Below are positions 5,342 to 56,570 of a stretch of 56,676 nt of DNA, piece by piece. The notes under the pieces were generated by a model, which was given only the letters and a program-made list of their open reading frames with translations, made no database searches and was not told where the DNA came from. The stretch lies in IMG/VR virus record IMGVR_UViG_3300032272_000004. One strand, written 5' to 3'. This DNA is from an uncultured virus (IMG/VR IMGVR_UViG_3300032272_000004) (lineage: Duplodnaviria; Heunggongvirae; Uroviricota; Caudoviricetes). Every line of letters starts with the position of its first letter. Position 1 is the first letter of the stretch. The translations under genes and the position numbers were made by a program.

Positions 5342-5387
5342 TTAGGGTTTGATCGCTGCCCCCAATCCGTGCCTAGATAGGATCCAC

Positions 5388-37693: not shown

Positions 37694-37735
37694 TGGAGAG
37701 GGCATGCCTCGAACCAAGATCGACGTGGACATAGA

Positions 37736-40667: not shown

Positions 40668-40954
40668 CTGATCGCAAGCCTCTTTCACTTATCGAGGTAC
40701 GGATGCTCTCGGAGGTCTGCCGCATGGCGGTCGCGCAAGCTGTGTCGAAGGACGCGCCGCCGATTCCGAAGATCGTGGAGGACGACCGGATGCTTTCTGC
40801 GCTCGTGGTGCTCGTCAAGGCACATTTTCAGGTCGGCTTGAGCCAGTCCGTGATCAACGCGGGAGGGGAACTCTTCGACCCCGACCCCGAGAAGGGTCTC
40901 GAGGAGCACCAGGCGGAGCTGACCGCTGTGGAGTGGAAGTTGGCGAACCGCTAG
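40664..40954 (+). CDS. hypothetical protein
   Basis: ATGA-coupled 96-aa ORF. Confidence 0.5.
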   Translation: MTDRKPLSLIEVRMLSEVCRMAVAQAVSKDAPPIPKIVEDDRMLSALVVLVKAHFQVGLSQSVINAGGELFDPDPEKGLEEHQAELTAVEWKLANR

Positions 40955-44310: not shown

Positions 44311-44340
44311 GGGTCTCTTTTACCACGAGCGACCAGCGGG

Positions 44341-44733
44341 TCAGGCTCGACGTTTCGTCTTCAGGTACACCCAGTTCCCGTTGTGCTTACCCTTCACGCG
44401 CACAAGAGCCGTGCTGGTGTACTCCCCGGGGCGGTCGACCCAGACCTGGGTCGATTCCCGCATCATGTAGATGCCCCCTTTGTAGCCCTCGAACTCCTTG
44501 CCGATCGCTTCCGTCAGGTTTTCGAGAAGCTGCGCCACCGTCCGGGGATCGCCATCCCTGTCCGCCTTCCATCCGAGAGCGAGCTGCGCGTAGTCCCCGC
44601 GCCAACTGTCTACGTCGCCGGGGCTGATGCCTCCGAACTCGAAGAAAACTTTGGCTTCGGGATTGTGCTGTCGAAGGGCGTAGATCAGCTCGCCCAGGCT
44701 CATGGTGATGTGCTCTGTCTTAGCTACTGGCAT
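44341..44733 (-). CDS. phage hypothetical protein
   Basis: SWRGDY.QLAL, GYKGG.Y.M..ST.VWV; AAGGAG RBS. Confidence 0.65.
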   Translation of the reverse strand: MPVAKTEHITMSLGELIYALRQHNPEAKVFFEFGGISPGDVDSWRGDYAQLALGWKADRDGDPRTVAQLLENLTEAIGKEFEGYKGGIYMMRESTQVWVDRPGEYTSTALVRVKGKHNGNWVYLKTKRRA

Positions 44734-45340
44734 CGTCTTCTCCTTTGTAGGGCGCAGGTCGCGCTTCGGTTTCGTAGATGACGGGAACCTCGAACATCGG
44801 CAGCAGGCGTCGATAGATCGCCGCCAACGCTTGGACGTCTTCGACGGCGCCGTGCTTTTGCTCCCCGAGCTCGAAATACTCCATGAGGGTGGACTGCTTC
44901 AGGTTGGGGATGTGTCCCGCGATCATCAGAGGGTGCGCCATGGAGGGGACGTCCAGCAGGTGCCTGGAAGCGAGCTTGGGAGGTCGCAGTCCGTGCCTGC
45001 GGCAACCCTCGACCACGTAGCCCCAGTCGAACTGCGGATTGCTGCCTGCGACGTATTTGCCCTCCAGTTGGTGACAGAGCACCTGGAGGGCATGCCGCTG
45101 GCTCGCGGCGCCCGCCCAGCCCGCGATGTTGAAGCCGTTGACCTCCCCTGCCTTTGGTTCGACGGGCAGCTCGGGCCAGACGCGACCCGCTGCGATCAGG
45201 TCATCGAAGGCCCTGTCGAAGTGGTGCGGAACCAACACGGCGTATTCGACGATGTCGGTGATGCGTGGGTCGAGCCCCCCTGTTTCTAGGTCGAGAATTG
45301 CGAGCTTTGGAGCCCATTTATCTGTGATCGGTGCTTTCAT
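44720..45340 (-). CDS. DEDDh 3'-5' exonuclease (DnaQ-like)
   Basis: ILDLETGGLDP, N..FD, H.A.EDV. Confidence 0.85.
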   Translation of the reverse strand: MKAPITDKWAPKLAILDLETGGLDPRITDIVEYAVLVPHHFDRAFDDLIAAGRVWPELPVEPKAGEVNGFNIAGWAGAASQRHALQVLCHQLEGKYVAGSNPQFDWGYVVEGCRRHGLRPPKLASRHLLDVPSMAHPLMIAGHIPNLKQSTLMEYFELGEQKHGAVEDVQALAAIYRRLLPMFEVPVIYETEARPAPYKGEDDASS

Positions 45341-46005
45341 TTGAGTACTCCCTCTTCGACGGCAAGGCCGAGTAGACATTGAAGCTGGGAACAGAACATC
45401 ACGGCGCCTTGGTCCGCGTCGAATTTCCCCAGCATGCTCGCCCAGGTCTTTTCGGTGTGGGCGTACAGTCCTGCAGCGAGGTGGCTTCCCTCTTCGCCGA
45501 CCCCAACGAAGTTGCCATCTTCGTGGGCCCTGTCGACGGCAGTCTTGCCGAATTCGGCGACGAGTTCGTCGACAGGTATCCCCATCAGCACCTGGGCTTC
45601 GATAATGGTCATCGACAGATCGACGCGCGCCACTGCTGGCGTTTTCGGATAGAGTTCGACGCCGTACTTCTCGCCAATGGCATGCAAGACCGCGTTCTCG
45701 ATGTCATCGTAGCCTTGGATGAGGCGTTTAATCGGGGAAATGACATCGCCCGTATAGGCCTCGGCTGAATCGTGAAGAAGTGCCTGCAGTTGGACCAAGG
45801 TGTTCTTCGGGAAAAGCCACCGGGCCATTTCGGCAGCCCAGATCGAATGCTCGGCGACCGAGTAGAATTTTCTCGGCTGCCCCGACCAGCGGGGCAAGCG
45901 TCCCGCGGCCCTGCCGATAGTCTCGGCCTTGATCTTCTTGGGGTCGGGGTTTTCAAAGTACAGGCGCTCGCCGCCCTCCAGCCACATGAACGGCCGCGCG
46001 GTCAC
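45337..46005 (-). CDS. HD-domain 5'-deoxynucleotidase (YfbR-like)
   Basis: R..G....FYSVAEHS, ALLHDSAEAYTGD. Confidence 0.85.
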   Translation of the reverse strand: MTARPFMWLEGGERLYFENPDPKKIKAETIGRAAGRLPRWSGQPRKFYSVAEHSIWAAEMARWLFPKNTLVQLQALLHDSAEAYTGDVISPIKRLIQGYDDIENAVLHAIGEKYGVELYPKTPAVARVDLSMTIIEAQVLMGIPVDELVAEFGKTAVDRAHEDGNFVGVGEEGSHLAAGLYAHTEKTWASMLGKFDADQGAVMFCSQLQCLLGLAVEEGVLK

Positions 46006-46289
46006 AGTGCCCTCCCGACGTGTCGAAGTGACTCGACGAGCGCACCCACGGTGAGGGCTACCTCGAGCGTGGGGAGTGTCGCGAGGTCCTCCTCGAAGAC
46101 CGTCTTGTCGTACTCCATCCCAGTGGCGGTCACGGTACCGGAGTTGTTCCAGCTGAAGTGCCACCAGGCGTGGGCTTCTTCGCCATCATCAGGGGAGACC
46201 CAGGCCTTGAGTCGAACCCGGATCCCCTCGGGATGTTTCTCCCCGGGGCAACAGAGGATGGGTGTGCGTTCAGTTTTCTTTTCCGGCAT
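46002..46289 (-). CDS. hypothetical protein
   Basis: GAGGA RBS before MPEKK; coupled to HD gene. Confidence 0.5.
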   Translation of the reverse strand: MPEKKTERTPILCCPGEKHPEGIRVRLKAWVSPDDGEEAHAWWHFSWNNSGTVTATGMEYDKTVFEEDLATLPTLEVALTVGALVESLRHVGRAL

Positions 46290-46503
46290 GTTCCTCGGCT
46301 TCATCTTTCAAGTGTTGTTTGCAGCGTGCGCAGATCAGGTGTCCCTCTCCGCGATGAAGAGTGACTACGACCGGATCTCCGTACTCGCCGGGCCACATTT
46401 CGTAGTGGATTCGAGCGGGCACACCCCAGCCGGGGAACGTGCGGTACCGCACGGTGGAGCCGCGTTGCGCGGAACACAGGTAGCATCGGGGGGTGCGGGC
46501 CAT
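46270..46503 (-). CDS. small zinc-finger protein
   Basis: CYLC and CARC. Confidence 0.5.
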   Translation of the reverse strand: MARTPRCYLCSAQRGSTVRYRTFPGWGVPARIHYEMWPGEYGDPVVVTLHRGEGHLICARCKQHLKDEAEEHAGKEN

Positions 46504-46537
46504 GAGGTCATCGGTAGCCGATCAGGTCGGGCATGAC

Positions 46538-46572
46538 TTGACACCTAGCATGGGTGTCGTCAAGATGACACC
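46538..46572 (+). promoter_or_regulatory. promoter/operator at divergence point
   Basis: TTGACA-17nt-CAAGAT; perfect GGTGTC-N8-GACACC 46553-46572; opposite-strand TTGACG overlaps; ATG 46574. Confidence 0.65.
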
Positions 46573-46573
46573 C

Positions 46574-46825
46574 ATGCTTCCAGCCGAGGGTGAAGGGGTC
46601 GTCACGCATCGTGGCCCAGGGAGAATCACCGGTGTTTTTGCCGACGGATTCATGGTTGCGTCTGACGACGGCGCCTTAGAAAAATACGATACAACCCAGT
46701 TCGATTGGCAGTCAGAAAACGGGTCGCGCTTTGTCCGTCCTCGTCACGACTGCGGTTATGGTAGCCCGGGGGCCCGGTGCATGTTGCGCCGGGGCCATCG
46801 GGGACTACATGCGGTGAAGTGGTGA
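46574..46825 (+). CDS. hypothetical protein
   Basis: ATG seven nt after -10; coupled to next gene. Confidence 0.5.
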   Translation: MLPAEGEGVVTHRGPGRITGVFADGFMVASDDGALEKYDTTQFDWQSENGSRFVRPRHDCGYGSPGARCMLRRGHRGLHAVKW

Positions 46826-47382
46826 AGCTAGCGCGGCTAGAACCTTGCGCGTGGTGCGGCGTTGAGCGCTACTGGCTCCGGACGACAGATGGGATCCGCC
46901 GTGTCGAGCCGCGTCGTATCAGCCGCCGGGGCAAACTTTTGACACCTGCGGACCGCGAGGCGTGTTGCCGGTGCGATGACAAGATTGCGCGAATCTTCTT
47001 GCTCCCCGGTTGGCTGCCGGACACCCCGATCTGGCCGGAGCTGCAGCAGTACTTCGTGCTGGAGAAGCACCGCCCGACGGCCGACAACAAGGAGGAGTCC
47101 GAGACCTACTTCCGTATGGAGCTGGACGTACCAGTCGCTCTGCGGGCTCGGCTACTTCGCATTCGTGTGGAGTGTCTGCACTGCAAGGCTTACGTCCACC
47201 CGTTCCGGCTCAGGCAGGGCGATGGTCGCGGGCGCCTGTATTACTCGTCGGTCTGTGGGCTCCGGAAGAACCTGGCTTGTTCCCGTGGTGACGCGGTGCG
47301 CACCGACCACGCACGGCTCGTGGCGAGCCTCGGTGGGGTTGCGCGAGAGTCAGCTCGGCAGGGTACCCTATGGGGGCTGTGA
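46822..47382 (+). CDS. zinc-finger hypothetical protein
   Basis: CAWC, CCRC, CLHC motifs. Confidence 0.55.
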   Translation: MKLARLEPCAWCGVERYWLRTTDGIRRVEPRRISRRGKLLTPADREACCRCDDKIARIFLLPGWLPDTPIWPELQQYFVLEKHRPTADNKEESETYFRMELDVPVALRARLLRIRVECLHCKAYVHPFRLRQGDGRGRLYYSSVCGLRKNLACSRGDAVRTDHARLVASLGGVARESARQGTLWGL

Positions 47383-47563
47383 AAAAGAGAGCTAAGTCCG
47401 GAGCGTGCCGCCGTGCCTGTATCGCGGTCGACCTTGCGCTCTTCGATGACGAAATTCCGATCAAGTATCGGGCAGCGTGGCCTCCGACCGATCCCACGAG
47501 CCCGTCCATGTACTGGTCACCCGAACTCGGATCGTCTTCATCGTCCGAACGAATCTGCTGGAA

Positions 47564-48136
47564 ATGACGGTCTTCACGATCGGTCACTCCGTGCACCCCA
47601 TCGATCTGTTCGTTGGCCTGCTCCAGGGCGCCGGCGTGACGGCGCTCGCCGATGTGCGTTCGGTACCGTTCAGCCGATTCCAGCCGCAATTCAACCGTCC
47701 AGCTCTCCGTCAGGCCCTGGCAGACGCGAAGATCGCCTACGTCTTCCTGGGCGACGAGCTCGGCGCTCGGTCGAAGGATCCCGATTGCTACGAGGATGGC
47801 CGCATTCAGTACCCCCGCCTCGCCAAGACGGCACTGTTTCAGGCGGGCATCGACCGAGTACTCCGTGGGAAGGCGGAGTACTCGGTGGCGTTGATGTGTG
47901 CCGAGAAGGAACCGCTCGAGTGTCACCGCACGCTGCTTGTCGCGAGGGAGCTGGACGAGCGCGGAGTCCCGGTCGTGCACCTGCATGCGGACGAAGATCA
48001 CGAATCACACGCAGCTGCCATGTTTCGGCTGCGGGCTCGCCTGGGTCACCCCGCGTTCGATCTGTTTCGCTCGGAGGAGGAGCTGCGCGAAGAGGCCTAC
48101 AAGGCTCAGGCCGTTCGATTTTCCTACAAGAAGTAG
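47564..48136 (+). CDS. DUF488 family protein
   Basis: VFTIGHS, LADVRS.P.SR, Y..LG.ELG.R, LMCAE..P..CHR. Confidence 0.9.
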   Translation: MTVFTIGHSVHPIDLFVGLLQGAGVTALADVRSVPFSRFQPQFNRPALRQALADAKIAYVFLGDELGARSKDPDCYEDGRIQYPRLAKTALFQAGIDRVLRGKAEYSVALMCAEKEPLECHRTLLVARELDERGVPVVHLHADEDHESHAAAMFRLRARLGHPAFDLFRSEEELREEAYKAQAVRFSYKK

Positions 48137-48157
48137 TCGATTCGAGCATACTCGGGC

Positions 48158-48243
48158 CGCGGGTGCGTGCAATCAGGTCGCACACCGGGCTCATAACCCG
48201 GCGCCGCAAGGCACTCTCGGTTCAAATCCGAGGCCCGCAACCA
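48158..48243 (+). tRNA. tRNA-Met(CAU), initiator-like but atypical
   Basis: C1:A72 mismatch, CCGGG-CTCATAA-CCCGG, CTCGG-TTCAAAT-CCGAG, encoded ACCA; 14-nt variable arm. Confidence 0.85.
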
Positions 48244-48302
48244 GCCCGGCGGGGGGCTAATGGCTTTGCCTTCAAAACCCCTCGTTGGGCTCCGACGTGA
48301 AG

Positions 48303-48896
48303 ATGGATAAGCCGACAAACATCAGCTGGCAGGCGGGTGAGGTCAGTCGAAGCGACCGGGAGGAGCGCCTCCAACAGTTTGGGGTGACGGTCTGGCTGAC
48401 AGGACTATCCGGAAGCGGCAAGAGCACGATCGCCGTCGCTCTCGAGAGCGAACTCACTCGCCGCGGCAAGCTCTGCTACCGGCTCGACGGCGACAATCTG
48501 CGCCACGGTCTGTGCGCCGACCTGAGCTTTGCCGCCGCAGATCGGACCGAGAACATCAGGCGTGCTGCCGAGCTCGCGAAGCTAATGGCAGACGCGGGGC
48601 TGATCTGCATCGCGAGCTTCATCAGTCCGTTCGAGAAGGACCGCGCTGCGGCCAAACGGACACACAACGAAGCTGGCATCCCCTTTGTCGAAGTGTATGT
48701 CGAGTGTCCCCTGGAGGTGGTCGAGGCCCGAGACCCGAAAGGTCTCTATCGCCTGGCTCGTGCTGGCAAGCTCCCGGGATTCACCGGGATCGGTTCGCCC
48801 TACGAGGCACCAGAGCTTGCAGACGTGGTCCTGAACAGCGATCGAAAGACCGTCGAAGAGGAAGTCGCCGAGATCATCCGCATGCTCCGGGTGTGA
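48303..48896 (+). CDS. cysC: adenylyl-sulfate kinase
   Basis: VWLTGLSGSGKSTIA, LDGDNLRHGL, SFISPF, RDPKGLY, FTGI.SPYE.P. Confidence 0.95.
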   Translation: MDKPTNISWQAGEVSRSDREERLQQFGVTVWLTGLSGSGKSTIAVALESELTRRGKLCYRLDGDNLRHGLCADLSFAAADRTENIRRAAELAKLMADAGLICIASFISPFEKDRAAAKRTHNEAGIPFVEVYVECPLEVVEARDPKGLYRLARAGKLPGFTGIGSPYEAPELADVVLNSDRKTVEEEVAEIIRMLRV

Positions 48897-49554
48897 AGGT
48901 GTAGCCGAAGCGCTCGATCCAGCTCGCGTCCAGCTCCCCGACGAGGTCGCGCAGTTCGTCGTCATAGTACGTGGAGTAGTGTCGGTGTGACGACGTCATG
49001 CGCGGGGGCTCTGCCCGGATTGCCGCTCGCAGCGCGGGCAGTTGGGGGCTCTCCGCCAAGAGCCGCGCAACCAGGGCTTCGGTGTCTGCGCGGAGGTGCT
49101 CGAACCGCACGGGCTCCCAGGGATGATCGCCCAGCAGATGTCCCTCCCAGCGGGCGATAGGCACGAGGCCCCTCGGTTCGCCGTCCTCTTGGAACTCCCG
49201 CAGCATCAATTTGGTGTTGCTGCGGAAATGCTCAGCGCTCGGAGCGTTTCGAGAAAACAATCGGTCCCACCAGAGCTCTGCTCGAGTCCACAGCTCCCGC
49301 GACCTGGCGTAGCCGCCGGTGCGGTTGCTCCAGTGGCCAGCCCAGAACATGTACCTGGAGACATGCCAGTCCCAGGGGTTGCGGACGCAAGCGAACACCG
49401 GGGAGCTGCGGAACTGCTCAGGCAGCCTCGTGAGCCCCGCATGGTCGGGGAAGCTCTGCAACCCCGGCAACCCAGCACCGCTCAGGACGTGGCGCATCCA
49501 GGTGCCCCCGGTCTTTGGAATATGCACGAACGTGAATTCGGGACAGTAGATCAC
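48874..49554 (-). CDS. sulfotransferase (family 2-like)
   Basis: FVHIPKTGGT (5'-PSB), VRNPWDW.VS.Y (3'-PB), YYDDELR.LV...FGYTF. Confidence 0.85.
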   Translation of the reverse strand: MIYCPEFTFVHIPKTGGTWMRHVLSGAGLPGLQSFPDHAGLTRLPEQFRSSPVFACVRNPWDWHVSRYMFWAGHWSNRTGGYARSRELWTRAELWWDRLFSRNAPSAEHFRSNTKLMLREFQEDGEPRGLVPIARWEGHLLGDHPWEPVRFEHLRADTEALVARLLAESPQLPALRAAIRAEPPRMTSSHRHYSTYYDDELRDLVGELDASWIERFGYTFTPGACG

Positions 49555-49788
49555 CCCGAGATTCTATCTCCGGCCGACTATCCCGAGGAAAAAAAGTGCT
49601 CGCGGGCGCGATGTCAAGCCCGAACCGGGCCCTAGACGGCCCCCGGCCGGCCGTCAAGGGGGAATCTGAGCCACCCACCACGGGAACCCCCCGGGCCCCG
49701 CGGGAAGCCCTGAAAAGCCCTCAGAAGCCGGATTTGGGCCGTTCCTGGGGCATCTGGGGCCGGCCGGAGGCCTCCCAGCCGGGGGATC

Positions 49789-49862
49789 GTCGTGACGATT
49801 ACTTCGGGAATCGTCACGACTACCCCCACTGTCGTGGTGATACCGTCAATAATCATCACGAC
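49789..49862. repeat. two tandem 32-bp inverted repeats
   Basis: GTCGTGACGATT-N8-AATCGTCACGAC (49789-49820) and GTCGTGGTGAT-N10-ATCATCACGAC (49831-49862). Confidence 0.7.
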
Positions 49863-49994
49863 TGGGGAGGGCCCGGATCTCCCGAGGTAGGGCCCCTACC
49901 CGGGCCGTCTGGGCAGGGCGGCCGGGGGCCCCTGACAAGGGCATCCCGGGGGGAAAGCCTTTCCCCGCTTGGTCCTTGACATCCTGACTGTTTT

Positions 49995-50175
49995 CCCGGC
50001 CGCTACGCCGCTTGACCCGCAAGGGTCGCACGGCAAGCGGCCGGGGTGATGCTTCCCGGTGAGAGGGGGAAGCATCAGACGCGCTAGGAACGCTCGCAAG
50101 AGTAGGTCCCGCGGGGTTCGAGACCCCGGGCGCGTTCCGGGCTTCGCGTTGAAGCCTGTAGCAGCCCGCAAGGGC
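49995..50175 (+). ncRNA. highly structured leader RNA (multi-hairpin, GCAA tetraloops)
   Basis: Stems 49995-50045, 50047-50077, 50140-50156, 50164-50175; three GCAA loops; includes tRNA-like copy A. Confidence 0.55.
50079..50138 (+). repeat. tRNA-like element copy A (divergent)
   Basis: ACGCGCT...CGGGG-TTCGAGA-CCCCG-GGCGCGT-TCC. Confidence 0.6.
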
Positions 50176-50186
50176 ATGGGGGCGCG

Positions 50187-50414
50187 ATGTGCGACCATAC
50201 AAACAGCGACGATCCGATCGTGCGGACCGTCGACAGTGCGCCAGCTCCGCTGCCGTGCACTGAATGGGAAGGAAGACTCTCGATATTTGAGAGGGAAAAC
50301 GGTTTCGACGCTGCCGAATGCAGCCGGATCCGGTCGGAACTGCGCCAGCACGGCGTAGCTACGGGTGGGGGCGGTGCATGGGCAACGTGGGAATTGCGGC
50401 TCGCGCGCCCATGA
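50187..50414 (+). CDS. hypothetical protein (cassette)
   Basis: Stop TGA lies inside the ATGA loop of copy B. Confidence 0.55.
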   Translation: MCDHTNSDDPIVRTVDSAPAPLPCTEWEGRLSIFERENGFDAAECSRIRSELRQHGVATGGGGAWATWELRLARP

Positions 50415-50448
50415 GGGTTCCCGGGGCTCGATGCCCCGGCGCGCACTG
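50403..50448 (+). repeat. tRNA-like element copy B
   Basis: GCGCGCC-CATGAGGG..GGGG-CTCGATG-CCCC-GGCGCGC-ACTG, then hairpin and AAAGGAGG. Confidence 0.8.
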
Positions 50449-50478
50449 GTCCGCTTGTGGACCTTGAAAGGAGGGCTT

Positions 50479-51066
50479 GTGCCCAAGATCGAATTGTTCG
50501 AGGTGCCGCCCCGCGGTTTCTCGGCCATGTGTCGTGAACTGCGCTCACGCATCGTGCTGTCAGCGTCAGACGCGGCGGTGGTCCAGAACCTACACCAGCT
50601 TGCTGGGTTGCGGGACGGGACCGAAACCGGAATCCAGGCGCCATTTCGCGCGCCTCATCATTCGGTGAGTGAGGCCGGCCTTGTCGGGCGACCCCCGCAG
50701 AAGCCGCGACCCATACCAGAACGCTACCTGCGGATGCTTCAAAACGATCCATCGCCCGATACGCGGGACTTGATCGAGTTGCACACTCGCCCATCTAGGG
50801 CGGAGTGGGGTGTCCCGGGTGAGGTGCACCTTGCGCACAAGGGCGTGCTCGTGCTGGATGAACTTTGCGAGTTTAGTAGCCGCTCGATCGAAGCGCTCAG
50901 TTGGGCGCTGCGCGATGGGAGCTGTCACGGCATGATCTGCGAGCCAGCGCTCGTGGCGTGCCTGATTCCAGCGGGCCCGCGTAGCAAGTTCGAGGAACGG
51001 CGACTGGGCCGCCACGTGGCGGAACTGCAGAAAGCAGGTCCGGTCGAATTACAGCGCGCCTCATGA
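50479..51066 (+). CDS. degenerate ComM/YifB (Mg-chelatase-like) ATPase fragment
   Basis: PFRAPHHS.S.AGLVG, PGEV.LAH.GVL.LDEL.EF; Walker A eroded. Confidence 0.8.
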   Translation: MPKIELFEVPPRGFSAMCRELRSRIVLSASDAAVVQNLHQLAGLRDGTETGIQAPFRAPHHSVSEAGLVGRPPQKPRPIPERYLRMLQNDPSPDTRDLIELHTRPSRAEWGVPGEVHLAHKGVLVLDELCEFSSRSIEALSWALRDGSCHGMICEPALVACLIPAGPRSKFEERRLGRHVAELQKAGPVELQRAS

Positions 51067-51101
51067 GAGGGGACGGGGGCTCGATGCCCCCGGCGCGCAC
51101 C
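51054..51101 (+). repeat. tRNA-like element copy C
   Basis: GCGCGCC-TCATGAGAGG..GGGGG-CTCGATG-CCCCC-GGCGCGC-ACC. Confidence 0.85.
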
Positions 51102-51133
51102 GGCCCACCTATGGGCCATGAAATGGAGTTCCC

Positions 51134-51403
51134 ATGGCAGAAACCAATAATTACGCATCCTACCGCTGGGTGATCACGAAAGACCGCATCACAAACGGTG
51201 AAGAAAAGGGCGTCGACGGTCCGCGCAACTGCAACCCGGATCTGAAGACCAACCGGGCCACATTCTCTCTCTGGGATGATGACGGGGAATGCTACTACGA
51301 GGGCCTGATCTTCGGCGACTACGAGGGATTCGAGCCCTTGGACGACTTCGGCATGCCGAATGCCGGGTGCACCGACATCAAGATCGACGGCGAGTCGCTG
51401 TAG
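51134..51403 (+). CDS. acidic phage hypothetical protein (cassette)
   Basis: F.L.DDDGE.YYEG...F.PLDDFG.PNAGCT.I; GGAG RBS. Confidence 0.7.
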   Translation: MAETNNYASYRWVITKDRITNGEEKGVDGPRNCNPDLKTNRATFSLWDDDGECYYEGLIFGDYEGFEPLDDFGMPNAGCTDIKIDGESL

Positions 51404-51450
51404 CGCGCCCCATGAGGGGTGACGGGGGTTCGATGCCCCCGGCGCGCACC
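51403..51450 (+). repeat. tRNA-like element copy D
   Basis: GCGCGCC-CCATGAGGGG..GGGGG-TTCGATG-CCCCC-GGCGCGC-ACC (canonical TTCGA loop). Confidence 0.85.
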
Positions 51451-51484
51451 GGCCCATTTGTGGGCCCTGACCTGGGAGGTCACC

Positions 51485-51808
51485 ATGCACCTTGCATTTG
51501 CACACATGAAATCCGCGGCACAGGGCGTTCTGCGTCCGGTCTACCTTCGAGATCTCGAGGTTCACGATCGCGTGGCGCTCGAGGCGCGGCCCGACTGCTC
51601 TTTTGCGTGGGCGGTCGGTCCGGACGGTACCCATATCGTCTGGGCGGGCGACGATCCGACGCTCGAGGACCTGAACCGGTCCCGGCTGACCCATGAGGAA
51701 CTCTGCGCCGTGGTCGACCAGTGCGGTGAGCACGAGTGGTTCACCTGGGATGGGCAGGCGTTCCTGCCGGCGGTCGATGCGGCCGATGCGGCCGAGCACC
51801 TAGCGTGA
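51485..51808 (+). CDS. hypothetical protein (cassette)
   Basis: GGAGGT RBS after repeat hairpin. Confidence 0.65.
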   Translation: MHLAFAHMKSAAQGVLRPVYLRDLEVHDRVALEARPDCSFAWAVGPDGTHIVWAGDDPTLEDLNRSRLTHEELCAVVDQCGEHEWFTWDGQAFLPAVDAADAAEHLA

Positions 51809-52425
51809 CCGACCATGAGATTGTCGATGGGCAGCTCGTATCTCGATCGCCGGCGCTTCGTTTGGAGCGCTGGGATGATCCTGCTGATCCGGGCCATGGT
51901 ATCGAACTCTGGAAGGGTGGCCCCCCCACAGCACCGATCTACGTGGTGCTGCACACGGGAAAGCTCTGCCAGAACCCGACCGGCTCGAAACTCGAGGCCC
52001 GGAAGATGTTCGACAACTTGCGGGAGACGTGCGTCCGGATGACAGAGCGGGACCGCCACTATCGGCCCAAGTGCGGGTTCGAGCCGTGTCCTGACGGTTG
52101 GGTGAAATGGATGGTCGGCGGCAGCATGGCGGTCTACGGGCAGCCGCTGCCGACAGTCGAGGGAGAAGCCAGCGATCGATGGGTGCAAATCCAGAATCCG
52201 GACGACCCCGAGCCACCTTACGTGGGAAAGCCCGCGTTGGTGGCTCTCATGCAAGGGGGTGGCGAGGGCTTTGATGCCGCGTGGCAATTCGAGACGATTG
52301 CTGCGGCGGTCGAGGCCGTCGGGCTGGCTCGAGCCACAGGGTGGCCGGACGTCAACCCCTTGCTGGGGACACCGATCGACCCCGGATCAGTGGGTATTGA
52401 ATGCACGACGCTCGAGCGTGACTGA
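51805..52425 (+). CDS. hypothetical protein; C-terminal half paralogous to 53064..53387
   Basis: GTGA coupling; shared W..W..GG, EPP..G.P..V.LM.G, TGWPD, DPGSVG. Confidence 0.65.
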   Translation: MTDHEIVDGQLVSRSPALRLERWDDPADPGHGIELWKGGPPTAPIYVVLHTGKLCQNPTGSKLEARKMFDNLRETCVRMTERDRHYRPKCGFEPCPDGWVKWMVGGSMAVYGQPLPTVEGEASDRWVQIQNPDDPEPPYVGKPALVALMQGGGEGFDAAWQFETIAAAVEAVGLARATGWPDVNPLLGTPIDPGSVGIECTTLERD

Positions 52426-52427
52426 CA

Positions 52428-52476
52428 GCACGTCCCATGAGGGAACACGGGGGCTCGATGCCCCCGGCGTGCACCA
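52428..52476 (+). repeat. tRNA-like element copy E (ends in ACCA)
   Basis: GCACGTC...GGGGG-CTCGATG-CCCCC-GGCGTGC-ACCA; compensatory A-T pair in acceptor stem. Confidence 0.85.
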
Positions 52477-52508
52477 GGGCCCTGATGCCCCAAGAAAAGG
52501 AGAAGCCA

Positions 52509-53060
52509 GTGACAATACCGGAAGATCTCATTGCGCTCGACGAACTCGAGCAAGCCACTGATACTCGCCACGCGCTGCGGGTTGCTCAGCGGATACTCCA
52601 GGCAACCCAGCGCGCGCTCACCGCAGCGCGGCAAATGGCCGACGCCGCGAGGCGCGATGCCGACGCCTCCGCTGTCGCCGCAGGCGTATTGCTCGGTCCG
52701 CGAGGGGGCCGGAAGTTTGAAGTCTACGACGAGGACGGCAATGCGTCGCTCGATTCGGAACTGCGCTGGGACACCCGCGCCGAAGCCGATGCCGCGAAAG
52801 AAACCTTGTGGATTGTCGACAAGCGGGTTGTGGAGGTGCGCGAGTGCTTTCCGTGGCCCAAGCGCGGGAGTGCTTTCTACATCACGCAGGGTCCCCGCTC
52901 GCCAGGGGACGAGCCCGATGAGGTCCCTCCCGGATCCTGGTTTGTCGCGGTGTACGCCGTGCGAGCTGACCCTCGAGGAGAGCCGATCGTCTGGCTCACC
53001 TTTCCTAGCGAAAAGGCAGCTTGGGAAGCCTTCCTGGACTTCAATCTGGACGGCACCTGA
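52509..53060 (+). CDS. hypothetical protein (cassette)
   Basis: AAGGAG RBS, GTG start. Confidence 0.65.
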   Translation: MTIPEDLIALDELEQATDTRHALRVAQRILQATQRALTAARQMADAARRDADASAVAAGVLLGPRGGRKFEVYDEDGNASLDSELRWDTRAEADAAKETLWIVDKRVVEVRECFPWPKRGSAFYITQGPRSPGDEPDEVPPGSWFVAVYAVRADPRGEPIVWLTFPSEKAAWEAFLDFNLDGT

Positions 53061-53063
53061 GCG

Positions 53064-53387
53064 ATGAGTGATCACGAGCCGTGCCCCGAGCTATGGGAGT
53101 CCTGGGATGCGGGCGGTGGGTGCATCGTGTGGGGCCGGTTGCTGGATAACGGCTACTGGATCCAGCTGTCGGCTCCGGACTGGCTCGAGCCTCCACTGAA
53201 GGGCGGGCCCACGGTCGTGGGCCTGATGCACGGTGACGCGGGCGATCCACCTGCTTGGAAATTTGCCAGCATCGATCTGGCGCTCGAGGCCATCGACCTG
53301 GCTTTCGAGACCGGGTGGCCCGACGAGGGCGGCCCAGACCAGCGCGACCCCGGCTCGGTCGGTGTCGCTACTAGCGCGTTCCCATGA
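53064..53387 (+). CDS. hypothetical protein, paralog of 51805..52425
   Basis: Motif similarity; stop inside copy F loop. Confidence 0.65.
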   Translation: MSDHEPCPELWESWDAGGGCIVWGRLLDNGYWIQLSAPDWLEPPLKGGPTVVGLMHGDAGDPPAWKFASIDLALEAIDLAFETGWPDEGGPDQRDPGSVGVATSAFP

Positions 53388-53423
53388 GGGGTTTTCGGGG
53401 GCTCGATGCCCCCGGCGCGCACC
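53374..53423 (+). repeat. tRNA-like element copy F
   Basis: GCGCGTT-CCCATGAGGGG..GGGGG-CTCGATG-CCCCC-GGCGCGC-ACC. Confidence 0.85.
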
Positions 53424-53456
53424 GGCCCACTGGTGGGCCATGAAAGGAGGTGAGCC

Positions 53457-53840
53457 ATGCTCACTAAAGCACGCGTTGCCGTGTTCTATCGGCTGTGGAA
53501 GCCGGGCGATTCTGAACTCGGCGATTCGACGGAGCGCGGCTCCGTCAAATACGACGAGAACGGCTACCCCGAGCTAATTGCTTGCGAGCAAGGCCCCGCG
53601 GTCGACTTTGGTGTGACCGTCGCGTTTTTCGCCTCTCACGCGCAAGCGGGGGAGCTGGGGCTCGATGTCTGGATCGGGGAAGGCCAAACGCTGTACTTCG
53701 ACAGCTGCCGCCCGGACGACGGAGAGGTCTACGCGTTCTGGGCCCGAATCCAATGCACGCCTGAAGCGTTCAAGCGCCTTTGCTCCCACCTAGGAGCTGC
53801 GTGTGCCTTCCAGCGTGGAATCACTCGGCGCGCACCGTGA
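53457..53840 (+). CDS. hypothetical protein (cassette)
   Basis: AAGGAGGT RBS. Confidence 0.65.
   Translation: MLTKARVAVFYRLWKPGDSELGDSTERGSVKYDENGYPELIACEQGPAVDFGVTVAFFASHAQAGELGLDVWIGEGQTLYFDSCRPDDGEVYAFWARIQCTPEAFKRLCSHLGAACAFQRGITRRAP
53801..53836 (+). repeat. degenerate tRNA-like element copy G (T-arm lost)
   Basis: GTGTGCC-TTCCA-GCG-TGGAA-..-GGCGCGC-ACC followed by AAGGAG RBS. Confidence 0.45.
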
Positions 53841-53863
53841 ACGCGCCAGAAAGGAGCAGCAAG

Positions 53864-54097
53864 ATGCCTGAGATTTCATTCTTCACTGGAAATACCTTCG
53901 ACGGTGAGCGCTTCGTGATCAGTGTCGAGGGTGGCGGCGAAGCCAGCGACCCGGGCATCGGATCGGGGCTTGTCGGCGACTACAAGGTGCGAGGTCTGAC
54001 CGCGCGCCAGGCCATATTCCTACGGCATGAATTGCCGGTCTACGACGCCGCCGAGGTGTTCCTCGCGATCTGTCGAGCGAAGCAGAGCCCGTCGTGA
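53864..54097 (+). CDS. hypothetical protein
   Basis: AAGGAG RBS; coupled to next gene. Confidence 0.55.
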   Translation: MPEISFFTGNTFDGERFVISVEGGGEASDPGIGSGLVGDYKVRGLTARQAIFLRHELPVYDAAEVFLAICRAKQSPS

Positions 54098-54342
54098 CTT
54101 ACGCACAGGCTGTGGATAACTTGTGCGACGAGTTCGAGGTGAACGTCGGCAGCCTCGACAACCCGCACGTGCCTTCGCTGCGCCCCGGTGGGGGCGCCTA
54201 CACCGAGGTCGGCAAGGTCCGCAAGATCATCGCAGATACTCGGGCCGCGTTTCGCCGCGGTGCCCGCACCTACCGCGAAGCTGAGCTCGCGGGCTACCAC
54301 GTGCGAATTGCGCTACTGATAGCGCTCTGGAGGGAAGCATGA
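54094..54342 (+). CDS. hypothetical protein
   Basis: GTGA/ATGA couplings. Confidence 0.55.
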   Translation: MTYAQAVDNLCDEFEVNVGSLDNPHVPSLRPGGGAYTEVGKVRKIIADTRAAFRRGARTYREAELAGYHVRIALLIALWREA

Positions 54343-55226
54343 GAGTTCGAGGGTTTCCGACCCGCTTTGGTCAGCGCCGCGAGGTGATCTTCTTCCCTTC
54401 CGGCTCCAACCGCCCCGTAGAAATCCGCGCCCTACTCAAGGCCGGTAGCAACGTGGGCGTCGCAGCTCCCCGAGTGAGCGCCAACGGCGAGGCCGAACTG
54501 CTGAGGGCCCGGGATGTCGACGTATTCGTCGACTCGGGCGCCTTCGGTGAGGTGACGCCCGGACCGACCGGAGTGGTCGTGACCAAGCCGTTCACTCACG
54601 AGAAATGGATCAAGGTGCTGGACCTGTACACGCGTCTGGCCCGCCAGCTGGGCGGTCGGCTCTATGCCGTCGCACCTGACCAGGTCGGCAGCCAGGAGGT
54701 GACCCTCGAACGCATGGCGCGCTACGGCGCCGAGCTGCGGGAACTGACAGCACTGGGCGCTCGGGTGATTCTGCCCATTCAGCAAGGCCCGATCGGAATG
54801 TGGGATCTCTGGGTGCAGCTCCTCGAGGCTTCGGGCTTGGATCCGTCGCTGGCCGTCGCCGGCGTCCCCTGCTGCAAGTGTCCGACCCCCGCGGGGGAGG
54901 TGGCCGAGTTCTCGGAGCAGATGAACTACGACCACTGGGAGCCCGGCCGGATTCACATCCTGGGCCGCGGCCCGGCCAGCCCGATCTGGGAGGACTACGC
55001 AGCGGCCTGCTGGCACCACCACGTGAGCGCCGATGCCTGTCGATGGCTGGCGATGAAGGGGTTCACCAGCTCGGGCAAGCCCCGCCGACTGCAAGTGGCA
55101 CACCAGCTCGCGAAAGAGACACTCCCGGAACCTCGCGCCTACGAAACGGCGGTCGAGCAGGTTTTTCGGAGCGAAATACAGCGACTGAAGCTCAGTCGCC
55201 CGGTTGGACAGATGGCGCTTTTCTAG
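54339..55226 (+). CDS. TGT/DpdA-like (tRNA-guanine transglycosylase-like) protein
   Basis: VFVDSGAF, APD.VG...TL, LPIQQG, GVP, IHILG, SAD. Confidence 0.65.
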   Translation: MRVRGFPTRFGQRREVIFFPSGSNRPVEIRALLKAGSNVGVAAPRVSANGEAELLRARDVDVFVDSGAFGEVTPGPTGVVVTKPFTHEKWIKVLDLYTRLARQLGGRLYAVAPDQVGSQEVTLERMARYGAELRELTALGARVILPIQQGPIGMWDLWVQLLEASGLDPSLAVAGVPCCKCPTPAGEVAEFSEQMNYDHWEPGRIHILGRGPASPIWEDYAAACWHHHVSADACRWLAMKGFTSSGKPRRLQVAHQLAKETLPEPRAYETAVEQVFRSEIQRLKLSRPVGQMALF

Positions 55227-55239
55227 GAGAAACTGACCC

Positions 55240-55461
55240 ATGGCAAGACACTGGCAGGATTTTGGTGAGGGAGCCGACGGCCCCCTTCAGATTATCAAGG
55301 GGGAGCGGCACGCGCTTCTCCTCGGAGATCACGAGGCCGACGCGACCGTCGGAGTCTATGAGGTCGACGAGGACGGAGAACTCGGGGGTCAGATCGCCCT
55401 CATGAGCTTTCTGGATGTCGAGACGGCCAAGAAATCACTGATCGACTTCTCGGTCGACTAG
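55240..55461 (+). CDS. small acidic hypothetical protein
   Basis: AGGAG RBS. Confidence 0.6.
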   Translation: MARHWQDFGEGADGPLQIIKGERHALLLGDHEADATVGVYEVDEDGELGGQIALMSFLDVETAKKSLIDFSVD

Positions 55462-55480
55462 GTGTCAGACTGACGACACC
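55461..55480. promoter_or_regulatory. GGTGTC-N8-GACACC operator
   Basis: Perfect copy of the operator just upstream of copy H. Confidence 0.6.
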
Positions 55481-55499
55481 CTAGCGTCTGTAGGACATA

Positions 55500-55549
55500 G
55501 CGCGCCCATGATGGGGGCACCGGGGGCTCGATTACCCCCGGCGCGCACC
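55500..55549 (+). repeat. tRNA-like element copy H
   Basis: GCGCGCC-CATGATGGG..GGGGG-CTCGATTA-CCCCC-GGCGCGC-ACC. Confidence 0.8.
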
Positions 55550-55619
55550 GGCCCACTGGGGCTGAGAGAGAGAGCACACACATTATGACCAAGAACACCA
55601 CGAAGAATCCGGGTGCGTT

Positions 55620-55910
55620 TTGACACCGGGCGAGCGGGACGAGGCCTTCCGCAAGGTCTACACGGTGACGGCAGTCCGGTCGGGTGAGATCTACGGGCGC
55701 CGGCAACTTATCAACTACGTGATAGGTCGTCTCCGCCGCGTCGCGAGTGATGCCATGGGAGCGTCCCTGCTTCGCGCCCTCGCCGAGGGCTACATCGACG
55801 ATCACAGGTGGATGCGATTCCGCACCAGCATGTCGCCCAACGCCATAGCTGGTGATATTTTGCGCGACTACCAGGTCAATGTCGGTCGCGAGCACCTGCG
55901 AAAGCACTGA
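55620..55910 (+). CDS. hypothetical protein coupled to 12-aa leader ORF (55585..55623)
   Basis: TTG start overlaps TGA of MTKNTTKNPGAF; stop abuts copy I. Confidence 0.55.
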   Translation: MTPGERDEAFRKVYTVTAVRSGEIYGRRQLINYVIGRLRRVASDAMGASLLRALAEGYIDDHRWMRFRTSMSPNAIAGDILRDYQVNVGREHLRKH

Positions 55911-55912
55911 CG

Positions 55913-55960
55913 ACGCGTCCCATGAGGGCACGTGGGGGCTCGATACCCCCGGCGCGCACC
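55913..55960 (+). repeat. tRNA-like element copy I
   Basis: ACGCGTC-CCATGAGGG..GGGGG-CTCGATA-CCCCC-GGCGCGC-ACC. Confidence 0.8.
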
Positions 55961-55992
55961 GGCCCACCGGGCTGAGAGAGAGCACACACATT

Positions 55993-56244
55993 ATGACCAA
56001 GAACACCACGAAGAAACCCACGAAGAAGACGAACCCGGCCCTTGCGGCCGTCACCCGTGCCGCGGAGGCGGCCGAAGAGCGCAACCTGAAGGGTCTCGTG
56101 TTCGAGGCGCCCCACGGCGTGGTGCTCCAGGTCGAGGACGGCGTCCTGACGGTCTGGGCCGAGTACGCCAACGACGAGCGCGACCTGACCGCGCGAATCG
56201 CTGTCCCGGGTGGGTGCCAGCTCCTGGAGCTCGGCAAGGAGTGA
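55993..56244 (+). CDS. hypothetical protein (cassette)
   Basis: GAGAGAG purine tract then ATG 55993. Confidence 0.6.
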   Translation: MTKNTTKKPTKKTNPALAAVTRAAEAAEERNLKGLVFEAPHGVVLQVEDGVLTVWAEYANDERDLTARIAVPGGCQLLELGKE

Positions 56245-56570
56245 CCCAGGTCACGTTCCAGGCACTGGGGGCCCCGGCGGGCCCGCAGCTGCCTGAAGAG
56301 CGGGCTCTCACCGTCATGATGCTGCTCCGGCAGCTCGGCGGCAACGTCACCTACTCGGAGCGCACTAGCACTGCGACGCTCGACCCGCGGTCGGCTGTTG
56401 GCCCGCTGATCGAAATCGCCAACGATGGGCGTCTCGACGGCTTCTGTCGCTACTGGGCCTACCGGGCCAAGGAGCAGCCGGCTCTGGCCAAGCACCCGCT
56501 GAAGCTCGAGGACTGCCTGTTGGTCGGATCCTATCTCCTGCGCTCGTGTCCGAGCCCTGGACGGTCGTGA
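56241..56570 (+). CDS. hypothetical protein
   Basis: GTGA couplings at both ends. Confidence 0.5.
   Translation: MTQVTFQALGAPAGPQLPEERALTVMMLLRQLGGNVTYSERTSTATLDPRSAVGPLIEIANDGRLDGFCRYWAYRAKEQPALAKHPLKLEDCLLVGSYLLRSCPSPGRS

Follow-up and report, generated by a model that had tools for sequence, protein, structure and literature searches.

tRNA-like mini-elements between the small genes of an uncultured virus record and of actinophage early regions: candidate signals for mRNA end definition

The window analyzed here, the complete 56,676-nucleotide IMG/VR record IMGVR_UViG_3300032272_000004 of an uncultured virus, contains a run of small co-directional genes punctuated by eight copies of an element which folds on the sense strand into a structure resembling the upper half of a tRNA, that is, a terminal stem stacked on a T-arm. 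Elements of the same architecture recur in the early regions of cultured actinophages, and we consider it highly probable that the element has been selected as a sense-strand structure and belongs to this actinophage class. As to its function, we give about an even chance to the possibility that the elements are sense-strand mimics of the tRNA top half, through which host enzymes that process tRNA ends would be recruited and mRNA ends defined.

Identification of the elements in the window

The core motif GGGGSYTCGATDCCCC, searched with at most one mismatch, has seven matches in the window, all on the plus strand, against an expectation of 0.01, and none of 100 shuffles reached seven. A covariance model, R1, was built from four window copies of equal length (C, D, E, and I), with an input structure made up of a terminal stem (7 bp), a mini-hairpin (2 bp), and a T-stem (5 bp), and was run unfiltered on both strands of the whole window. 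It returned 51 matches at an E value of ≤10, eight of which had an E value of <0.01. Copies D (start at 51403, 78.1 bits), C (51054, 77.6 bits), E (52428, 76.2 bits), and I (55913, 72.1 bits) match R1 by construction; copies F (53374, 61.3 bits), H (55500, 49.7 bits), B (50403, 49.6 bits), and A (50079, 22.9 bits, E value of 0.007) are independent detections. The next best match scored 16.6 bits (E value of 0.17; 3245 to 3287, minus strand). All eight supported copies are on the plus strand and within 50079 to 55961, i.e., 5.9 kb of the 56.7 kb. A sequence-only reading of this DNA had counted nine related elements; eight of them are confirmed, seven being strong and A divergent, and the ninth, G, is a degenerate relic, which R1 places at the noise level (53799 to 53837, 10.8 bits, E value of 3.2).

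A scan based on structure alone, requiring a T-loop-like loop, a 5- to 6-bp stem, and a contiguous 5- to 7-bp terminal stem with its 5' strand 6 to 30 nt upstream, gave nine matches in the window, compared to a mean of 0.53 per shuffle, and eight of the nine are the elements. The ninth (31793 to 31847, plus strand) reads TGAAGT... GGGAGG-TTCGACT-CCTTCC-GTTTCA with several G·U pairs and is probably a chance match. Furthermore, a repeat search delimited a unit of about 74 nt (families D1 and D3), composed of the element, a GC hairpin, and a purine-rich ribosome-binding site (RBS). Canonical tRNA genes were considered and rejected as an identity for the elements, which are 46 to 61 nt long, have no anticodon arm, and are missed by ARAGORN and by the Rfam tRNA model; the only true tRNA that ARAGORN and Rfam (at the gathering threshold) called over the whole window was a tRNA-Met at 48158, and no element was called by either.

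Fold and covariation of the window copies

The common plan comprises the terminal stem GCGCGCC/GGCGCGC, a mini-hairpin whose loop is ATGA in seven of the eight copies, a T-arm with the consensus GGGGG-(C/T)TCGAT(G/A)-CCCCC, an unpaired A, and CC(G/A). After another 1 to 3 nt there follow a 4- to 6-bp hairpin, a Shine-Dalgarno (SD) sequence, and a start codon. The tRNA top-half plan put forward in the sequence-only reading (7-bp terminal stem, 5-bp T-stem, unpaired A, then CC) is present; of the discriminator A and CC(A) that went with it, the A and the following CC are there, and CCA is not encoded, the tail being ACCG in six of the eight copies and ACCA in one. The helix is split 7+5 in six copies and 6+5 in B and, through a mismatch of the first pair, in I. 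Nearly all copies share one stem sequence, with the exceptions of E, which is compensated, and A, which is divergent. Four copies have the loop CTCGATG; the loop of D is TTCGATG, that of I is CTCGATA, that of A is TTCGAGA, and that of H is CTCGATTA. The downstream hairpin has the form GGCCCA-NNNN-TGGGCC, with a compensated change to GGTCC/GGACC after B.

Minimum free energy folds reproduced the Y shape (terminal stem, ATGA mini-hairpin, and T-arm-like hairpin) in the seven strong copies except I; H has a larger mini-hairpin loop, A is Y shaped only when folded with its flanks, and neither I nor the relic G takes this shape. Over the eight copies, 99.1% of the cells are paired, compared to 35 to 65% in controls with slid partners. 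The structural covariation noticed at first sight is borne out, since both partners change in four pairs (five cells), compared to 1.0 ± 0.8 in shuffles, 2 of 500 of which reach this value, although with eight related copies and an alignment fitted to the model this is supportive rather than decisive. An alternative fold, with a 5-bp stem and a 4-bp mini-hairpin, was set aside as somewhat worse: it pairs 95.4% of the cells, and its pair 6:40 fails in four of the eight copies. Moreover, the window copies contain five G·U cells at stem positions 6 and 7, which would be A·C mismatches on the opposite strand and point to the sense strand as the one that folds.

Arrangement of the copies along the array

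The order stop codon, element, hairpin, RBS, and next gene recurs along the array just as the sequence-only reading described it, with the elements strictly on the coding strand and clustered in one operon of small genes. The upstream stop overlaps the element in four of eight cases, namely, as the TGA of the ATGA loop in B, C, and F, as had been claimed (the open reading frames [ORFs] end at 50414, 51066, and 53387), and as the G of a TAG in D.

Copy A (50079 to 50139, plus strand, as are all the copies) is longer and divergent; the structure-only scan assigns it a 7+5-bp helix. It has the stem ACGCGCT/GGCGCGT, a 26-nt middle part with a GCAA-loop hairpin, the T-arm CGGGG-TTCGAGA-CCCCG, and the tail TCCG, and its next hairpin lies at approximately 50138 to 50158. 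Copy B (50403 to 50448), which is predicted to adopt the fold with a 6+5-bp helix, holds within its ATGA loop the TGA of ORF 50187 to 50414 and is followed by the GGTCC/GGACC hairpin (50448 to 50463), the SD sequence AAGGAGG, and a GTG at 50479. Copy C (51054 to 51102), with a like predicted fold, holds in its loop the TGA of ORF 50479 to 51066 and precedes the hairpin GGCCCA-CCTA-TGGGCC (51102 to 51117) and an ATG at 51134. In copy D (51403 to 51451), with the same fold, the G of the upstream TAG (51401 to 51403) is acceptor nucleotide 1; the hairpin is at 51451 to 51466 and the ATG is at 51485. Copy E (52428 to 52476) carries the tail ACCA and the stem GCACGTC/GGCGTGC, with a compensated A-U (pair 3:67) and one G·U pair; the upstream TGA ends 2 nt before it, and a GGGC/GCCC hairpin (52477 to 52490) and a GTG at 52509 come after it. 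Copy F (53374 to 53424), in which the stem strand GCGCGTT forms two G·U pairs within the predicted fold, contains the last four codons of ORF 53064 to 53387 together with its TGA; the hairpin at 53424 to 53439, the SD sequence AAGGAGG, and an ATG at 53457 follow.

The relic G (53799 to 53842) lies inside the 3' end of ORF 53457 to 53840 and retains the 11-nt 3' strand GGCGCGCACCG and a TTCCA-GCG-TGGAA hairpin, without a T-arm. Copy H (55500 to 55550) has an 8-nt loop and is followed by a hairpin (55549 to 55564), the GAGAGAGAG leader, and an ATG at 55585, while copy I (55913 to 55961), whose first pair is an A·C mismatch, is followed by a hairpin (55960 to 55974), the same leader as after H, and an ATG at 55993. 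The 45 nt comprising the leader and the first codons after H (55566 to 55610, plus strand) are 98% identical to 55974 to 56018 (repeat family D6), so that the duplication reaches beyond the elements H and I themselves. The leader after H opens a frame of 12 codons (ATG to TGA, 55585 to 55623), to be read as a decayed copy or else as a leader peptide, and the one after I opens a gene of 83 codons; the next ORF after H (55620 to 55910) starts with TTG in a different frame.

A class of similar elements in cultured actinophages

A single 56-nt element from IMG/VR, compared by blastn with INPHARED, matched 152 phage records at 613 places. Judging by the host genus in the phage name, 113 of these records belong to phages of Streptomyces, 27 of Mycobacterium, 6 of Microbacterium, 4 of Gordonia, and 2 of Halorubrum, the last being probable chance matches. 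Among the matches listed, no annotated feature was found at the site, except for one Halorubrum match under a coding sequence. It follows that the initial impression of a system without parallel in bacterial viruses does not hold, the same architecture being present, unannotated, in these records; the class is widespread in sequenced actinophages and appears to be undescribed. Carriers include the Streptomyces R4-like/BD phages (Joe, Zemlya, and Lika) and Mycobacterium phage Predator and its relatives.

Nineteen copies from Joe, Zemlya, and Predator gave a nearly gapless alignment (A5), from which a second covariance model, R2, was derived with the window excluded. They have in common a terminal stem of 5 bp, a linker of 11 nt (AC-YGG-CAGACA) in which the GG, which we take to be the analogue of G18G19 in the tRNA D-loop, never varies, a T-stem of 6 bp, and an unpaired AC. 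The first five bases of the T-loop, TTCGA, are invariant, and the loop reads TTCGAGT in 13 of the 19 copies. Of 228 cells, 99.6% are paired, and 9 of the 12 pairs change on both sides (45 cells), which none of 500 shuffles equaled; the covariation score is 0.572, compared to ≤0.114 with slid partners. The single pair of the linker covaries as well (C:G in 14 copies, G:C in 3, and A:U in 1).

Searched over whole records, R2 found eight copies in Joe (43054 to 47677, minus strand, the same as its genes), seven in Zemlya (44689 to 49856, minus strand), and seven in Predator (36842 to 41801, plus strand); over 21 loci it gave 77 matches at an E value of ≤0.01, with 6 to 8 per IMG/VR arm. In the leftward early arm of Joe, the motif occupies eight intergenic gaps. 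The structure-only scan agrees, with seven matches each in the Joe arm (L055), the Zemlya arm (L057), and Predator (L056), against means of 0.1, 0.13, and 0.2 per shuffle, respectively, and three matches against a mean of 0 in the metagenome locus L038. The helix is split 5+6 (6+5 in one) in the 20 copies listed by the scan for Joe, Zemlya, and Predator, a count that leaves out a 46-nt Predator match overlapping a gene end; the L038 copies are split 7+5 or 6+6. The total of 11 to 12 bp, closed by an unpaired -1/73 mismatch, is common to all variants; it is the split that differs.

L038, a phage-like metagenome contig on which a serine recombinase and a clamp-like gene were recognized, carries three copies found by the scan and one found by eye, each after a stop and before an RBS, and their stem sequences differ (CACCCGC, GCCCGC, and GCGCGT). 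Within its positions 1 to 3100, a G-rich motif (TAGCAGGGAAGGGTAGGG, TAGGGCAGGGCAGGG, and TAGGTAGCAGGGTAGGG) precedes each mini-tRNA, and its start coincides with the upstream stop or lies shortly past it. This further conserved signal between cistrons was not observed in the window. At 2260 to 2356 of another locus, L032, a Joe-type element (R2, 64.5 bits) lies approximately 14 nt downstream of an AT-rich, promoter-like sequence (TTGACA-18 nt-TATACT), which raises the possibility that some copies are produced as small RNAs on their own, outside an operon. Several gaps of the Joe arm without a mini-tRNA (e.g., 3173 to 3232, 3623 to 3685, and 5338 to 5399) contain TGTGACAGTG-type repeats, and the same motif (GTGACAG) also lies within the hairpins after several Joe mini-tRNAs. 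Repressor "stoperator" sites are mentioned for R4-like phages in one report (PMC10276819); the Joe repeats may be such sites. The Zemlya array includes a gene for an Ocr-like anti-restriction protein.

Relationship of the window variant to the class

When R2 was applied to the window, copies B (27.6 bits, E value of 4.5e-5), H (24.7 bits), D (23.5 bits), and C (17.5 bits) ranked first, followed by A (T-arm only, 16.7 bits), E (15.9 bits), and F (12.5 bits). Three copies had an E value of <0.001 and four more were in the top nine, with 12 to 28 bits compared to 50 to 74 bits for members of the class. R1 reciprocally matches Joe-type copies with a GCGCG stem at 20 to 26 bits. The window and the cultured class have in common a sense-strand element of 40 to 50 nt between the stop and the RBS of small early genes, 7 or 8 copies per approximately 5 kb, an 11- to 12-bp helix of stem and T-stem followed by an unpaired A, a 7-nt T-loop-like loop, and a hairpin and SD sequence downstream. 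However, the helix is 7+5 bp in the window and 5+6 bp in the class, the ATGA-loop mini-hairpin replaces the AC-YGG-CAGACA linker and its 1-bp covarying pair, the loop is CTCGATG instead of TTCGAGT, and the tail is ACCG instead of ACT or ACG; moreover, the window keeps one stem sequence throughout, and four of its copies overlap the upstream stop. In particular, the combination of a TTCGA loop start with the 11-nt GG linker and its covarying pair does not occur in the window copies, and the 11- to 12-bp coaxial helix with an unpaired end is found in all eight of them by the scan, with the pairing given above. On these comparisons, we class the window elements as a probable divergent variant of the same architecture as the actinophage motif.

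No close relative of the window variant came to light. By blastn, the 7.7-kb array had no match in INPHARED, and a single window element had one weak partial match there (E value of 0.6) and 14 weak partial matches among plasmids (best E value of 0.01). One of the plasmid matches, in an Erythrobacteraceae plasmid (L058), was discarded as a similar GC hairpin without a matching terminal stem. A pattern specific to the 3' half of the window element found no locus in IMG/VR. A looser pattern with a nearby 5' stem strand identified mini-elements in six of the nine loci from JGI metagenomes and in all nine loci from IMG/VR; the remaining metagenome loci were two true tRNA-Leu genes and one apparent coding match, and L038 was the only metagenome locus with an array. 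A second IMG/VR pattern, derived from L038, led to six loci, mostly true tRNAs or tRNA arrays. With R2, no copy was found in 4 host genomes or in 81 genomes of the genus of Streptomyces sp. KR80, with only 77 to 150 of the thousands of candidates being scored per genome, too few for this negative to carry any weight. A T-arm pattern also brought up a contig of a Polyangia metagenome-assembled genome (MAG) with 24 tRNA genes in 2.5 kb (L008, 3002 to 5459).

The pattern scan of GTDB genome contigs returned 30 loci, 11 of which are true tRNAs: nine tRNA-Leu(tag), one tRNA-Leu(gag), and one tRNA-Glu. The other 19 were rejected, looking like chance in GC-rich sequence, plus one palindrome, and none formed an array. 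The nine tRNA-Leu(TAG) genes come from Mycobacteriales, Frankiales, and unclassified Actinomycetota MAGs, and their acceptor stem (GCGCGCC/GGCGCGC), T-stem, and discriminator equal those of the window element. This identity with GCGCGCC... GGGGG-TTCGAnn-CCCCC-GGCGCGC-A, along with the decay of copy G, is what would be expected of a selfish miniature repeat derived from a tRNA, similar to miniature inverted-repeat transposable elements (MITEs) or repetitive extragenic palindromes (REPs), or of decayed tRNA debris with no function for its carrier. We regard such an origin as very improbable. The copies have one orientation and occupy one 5.9-kb stretch of 56.7 kb, those of the cultured phages are clustered likewise, target-site duplications and transposase genes are absent, and all copies have the same "deletion" shape. 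Moreover, covariation over many stem sequences in the cultured class indicates selection on the fold and not the copying of one tRNA. Dispersal of the REP or MITE type in both orientations was rejected, all eight copies being on the plus strand between 50079 and 55961.

Rfam 15 contains no family for either the window or the cultured variant at the gathering threshold or at E values of ≤1 to 10. The mascRNA-menRNA family (RF01684) was the only one to align at all, scoring 18.3 bits with copy A and 26.4 bits with a copy from IMG/VR, below the gathering score of 42.5. Our literature search found no description of the motif; Smith et al. (2013), on R4-like phages, and the supplement of a csRNA catalogue (PMC10690425) could contain one. 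Searched by terms, the papers on phage Joe, phiScoe, viral csRNA, YrlA, Patience, and UUA gave no mention of it, and the phage Joe paper has no occurrence of "tRNA," "intergenic," or "stem-loop."

Proposed role in the definition of mRNA ends

In tRNAs, the 12-bp stack of the acceptor and T stems, together with the T-loop, is what RNase P, RNase Z, and the CCA-adding enzyme recognize, and RNase Z acts on precursors without CCA. In bacteria, 5'-terminal hairpins and structured 3' ends slow mRNA decay. The 11- to 12-bp helix of the elements, with its unpaired end, corresponds to the acceptor/T stack and hence would suit the end-processing enzymes. In the process that we propose, the array would be transcribed as one long message, and each element would fold on the sense strand into the coaxial helix, capped by the T-loop-like hairpin. 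Host enzymes measuring this helix (RNase Z, RNase P, or both, with the CCA-adding enzyme perhaps acting afterward) would then cut between the cistrons, in the window most likely just after the unpaired A. The upstream mRNA would keep its stop codon and end in a mini-tRNA acting as a 3' cap, and the downstream mRNA would begin 1 to 3 nt before the GC hairpin, a 5' cap preceding the RBS. As a by-product, the repeated modules would act as homologous recombination joints for the reshuffling of gene blocks.

A cut after the A is favored in the window because four of the eight upstream genes would lose their stop codon if the message were cut at the 5' edge and because the hairpin starts 1 to 3 nt after the A, so that both products would receive structured ends. 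Cleavage at the 5' edge by RNase P, one of the enzymes named in the sequence-only reading, is accordingly weakened for this locus. The stop is separated from the element by 6 to 20 nt in Joe, Zemlya, Predator, and L038, a spacing with which 5' cutting would be compatible.

Several observations weigh against a role in processing or against the link with the class on which it leans. A 5'-edge cut by RNase P would leave non-stop mRNAs for the genes upstream of B, C, D, and F. Stem positions 6 and 7 could join the mini-hairpin instead of the terminal stem. Position 54 is a C in six of the eight window copies, and 54:60 can pair (C-G, T·G, or T-A), which makes a true T-loop fold uncertain there; the description of the loop as tRNA-type, advanced from the first reading of the DNA, consequently stands in part. 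The 3' tail of H and I is partly paired with the next hairpin, the covariation within the window carries the modest weight stated above, and the GG linker of the cultured class is lost. The signal common to the window and R2 amounts to a GC-rich stem, a T-arm, and an A, from which common descent is not established. Finally, transcription as one message, the enzymes acting, stabilization, and cleavage, the last in the relatives as much as in the window, are steps that we infer.

The same structural evidence would also suit an RNA motif that works without cleavage, either as a mimic of the tRNA elbow that binds a factor (the ribosome, a tRNA-modifying enzyme, or, as a decoy or sponge, a defense nuclease) or as a device coupling termination to re-initiation at the next cistron. 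Stops inside the element in four of eight copies and ATGA in seven of eight loops suit a role in translation better than 5' cutting, and several copies per transcript would suit a sponge. However, the overlap with the stop is local and not a rule of the class, given the 6- to 20-nt spacing in Joe, Zemlya, Predator, and L038, and it is a helix of fixed length (11 to 12 bp) with an unpaired end that the end-processing enzymes recognize. An RNA without an anticodon arm, moreover, cannot mimic the usual target of anticodon nucleases, which makes the decoy role suggested earlier unlikely where the defense targets the anticodon. On balance, a motif acting without cleavage seems to us an unlikely explanation.

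Factor-independent terminators or pause sites without U tracts, subdividing the operon, would account for the stable GC hairpins after each gene, and terminators without poly(U) are reportedly present in the early region of phiC31. The terminator scan of the array region, however, gave eight sites, none of them at an element, with 4.3 to be expected by chance over the region, and neither a T-loop sequence nor a fixed helix length is a feature of terminators. In addition, a scan of the array region found no promoter-like site at all and hence none after any element. We find this explanation scarcely credible.

Permuted element-bounded blocks and a possible role in recombination

The comparison of the Joe arm with that of Saftant (L044) revealed element-bounded blocks in permuted order: Joe 6601 to 6986 corresponds to Saftant 3471 to 3854, 7113 to 8627 to 1998 to 3516, 8582 to 9334 to 1298 to 2054, and 9280 to 10057 to 3983 to 4759, and neighboring high-scoring segment pairs (HSPs) overlap exactly in the elements. 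When the Joe arm was compared with four relatives, HSPs of at least 200 nt had 28 ends, 14 of which are no more than 25 nt away from an element, compared to an expected 16.6% (P = 4.6e-5). Seven more ends fall at five gene junctions without an element, and at least three are cut by the edges of the loci. The rate per junction is therefore similar and reflects a mosaicism that is general at gene boundaries. In the window, the genes 51805 to 52425 and 53064 to 53387, located before E and F, are paralogues (42% identity, E value of 8e-21), and, together with the 98% duplicate leader after H and I, they fit the duplication of units made of a gene and an element. The alignment of the paralogues reaches the penultimate residue of 53064 to 53387, which backs the position of its stop inside copy F. 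The earlier proposal of the repeats as recombination points thus gains indirect support from the permuted blocks of Joe and Saftant, tempered by the similar rate at element-free junctions. A role of the elements as recombination joints is plausible.

The array also invites comparison with integrons. As in integron arrays, small, mostly orphan, co-directional genes are each followed by an imperfect inverted repeat of about 50 nt, and a tyrosine recombinase lies in the neighborhood. This domain (42834 to 43476, minus strand; Pfam Phage_integrase, E value of 2.7e-16, in ORF 40951 to 44310) is located approximately 5.8 kb upstream of the array with unrelated genes in between, and its link to the array is not established. 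Sites acting at the DNA level, either integron-like for this recombinase or homologous joints with no RNA role, would also explain the duplicated-looking units before E and F and after H and I, as well as the permutation and the HSP ends near elements. Nevertheless, the recombinase is not of the integron type, scoring 36 against a cutoff of 265 with TIGR02249 and 24.4 against 435 with PRK15417, and an identity as integron integrase was rejected. The attC core consensus is RYYYAAC... GTTRRRY. By inspection, the eight copies end in GCGCGCC... GGCGCGC with no R''/R' cores and no GTTRRRY, and they were rejected as attC sites. Furthermore, an internal T-arm and a loop conserved in sequence are not attC features, and several genes of the array are joined without an element. 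Phage Joe, for its part, has a serine integrase with its own attP and yet carries elements, and HSPs also end at the element-free junctions. Coding-strand orientation, G·U pairs, and a loop starting with TTCGA are unneeded for DNA recombination and are traits of an RNA. For these reasons a dedicated DNA-site role is not supported, and we judge DNA-level sites to be quite unlikely as the explanation of the elements.

It is possible to hypothesize, at the price of a picture that is somewhat unlikely as a whole, that actinophages and related uncultured elements build their early accessory regions from modules of a gene, a mini-tRNA, a hairpin, and the next RBS, with the element serving two purposes. 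At the RNA level, the mini-tRNA would recruit tRNA-maturation enzymes, cutting the message into end-protected mRNAs. At the DNA level, it would supply shared homology for the swap, duplication, and permutation of modules between phages, amounting to an integron-like cassette logic without a dedicated integrase. In the window, the ATGA loop would additionally provide a stop for any ORF recombined upstream of it.

Gene content of the array and its surroundings

The ORF list and the reading of the sequence delimit a co-directional run of about 15 small genes (50187 to 56570, plus strand): 50187 to 50414, 50479 to 51066, 51134 to 51403, 51485 to 51808, 51805 to 52425, 52509 to 53060, 53064 to 53387, 53457 to 53840, 53864 to 54097, 54094 to 54342, 54339 to 55226, 55240 to 55461, 55620 to 55910, 55993 to 56244, and 56241 to 56570. 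Some are joined by GTGA or ATGA overlaps (at 51805, 54094, 54339, and 56241), and an element lies between the others. In Pfam, one of the 15 genes had a match, a partial Mg_chelatase domain in 50479 to 51066, and two ORFs upstream of the array had none; a 295-amino-acid cassette protein had no match in INPHARED or IMG/VR. The array is preceded by approximately 550 nt of noncoding DNA (49636 to 50186) dense in GC hairpins, including two with GCAA loops, and a 10-bp stem (GATGCTTCCC... GGGAAGCATC) ends 2 nt before copy A. The same region contains TTGACA and TTGACC hexamers, and the scan did not call a sigma-70-type promoter there.

Upstream, at a distance of approximately 1.9 kb from the array, lies the tRNA-Met gene with a CAT anticodon (48158 to 48243, plus strand), 86 nt long by ARAGORN and scoring 37.6 bits against an Rfam gathering score of 29. 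It is overlapped by the long ORF 47413 to 48300 and is directly followed by an APS-kinase gene (48285 to 48896; Pfam E value of 5e-64). The minus-strand ORF 40951 to 44310 would encode 1,119 amino acids, with the recombinase domain confined to residues 278 to 492; the plus-strand ORFs 40933 to 42393 and 42874 to 44781 overlap it, and gene limits are ambiguous in this sequence of 64% GC. Scans with Pfam, PHROGs, and NCBIfam, each on 15 to 34 window ORFs, gave few matches and recognized no capsid, portal, or terminase, so that the viral origin of the window is not established by its gene content. The window does carry a DUF5131 protein, methylases, and the recombinase. Among sequencing runs, a single one, of DNA from a sediment metagenome, contains the stretch and may be its source, and no RNA run was listed. 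The best phage matches of the DUF5131 protein are in Mycobacterium and Gordonia phages (40 to 45% identity), a weak hint of a possible actinobacterial host.

Comparison with known tRNA-like systems and significance

In mitochondria, tRNA punctuation creates mRNA ends at tRNA-like sites of RNase P and RNase Z. For mascRNA and MEN-beta, a cut by RNase P makes the 3' end of the upstream RNA, and RNase Z and CCA addition follow. Plant mitochondrial t-elements, according to Forner et al. (2007; PMC1920247), are tRNA-like structures beside protein genes. Like t-elements and mitochondrial punctuation signals, the elements consist of an acceptor and a T-arm only and lie between or beside protein genes, and the mechanism would be the one proposed here. 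The organellar systems differ in being unrelated in sequence, in having no regular arrays with an appended hairpin and RBS, and in that their cleavage has been shown by experiment, whereas the present elements are known from DNA alone. The mascRNA and MEN-beta RNAs are also small tRNA mimics without a normal anticodon arm inside a longer transcript; however, they belong to vertebrate nuclear long noncoding RNAs (lncRNAs), and alignments far below the gathering score of RF01684 indicate no homology.

A bacterial comparison is offered by YrlA, described by Chen et al. (2014; PMC4201824) as a noncoding RNA of bacteria and a mycobacteriophage that mimics the T and D arms of tRNA. On that account, its tRNA-like domain is handled by tRNA enzymes, and it differs in being a single, longer gene beside the gene for Ro60 (TROVE). 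Y-RNA families were absent from the matches of our Rfam search, and the TROVE domain was absent among the ORFs scanned. The mechanism suggested by these parallels would thus be that of plant t-elements, mitochondrial punctuation, and mascRNA; its setting, an array in phage early operons, we did not find described.

If our proposal is correct, tRNA punctuation would no longer be confined to mitochondria, to plant t-elements, and to a small number of vertebrate lncRNAs but would also be a routine device of bacterial viruses, namely, phages that infect Streptomyces, Mycobacterium, and their relatives. It would explain how stable individual messages arise from long early operons of tiny genes, which often include genes for host takeover or anti-defense. 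It would also provide a new annotation feature for hundreds of sequenced phages and a compact, portable part for multigene expression in actinobacteria. The window would add that the class reaches uncultured elements from sediment and tolerates a redesigned middle part.

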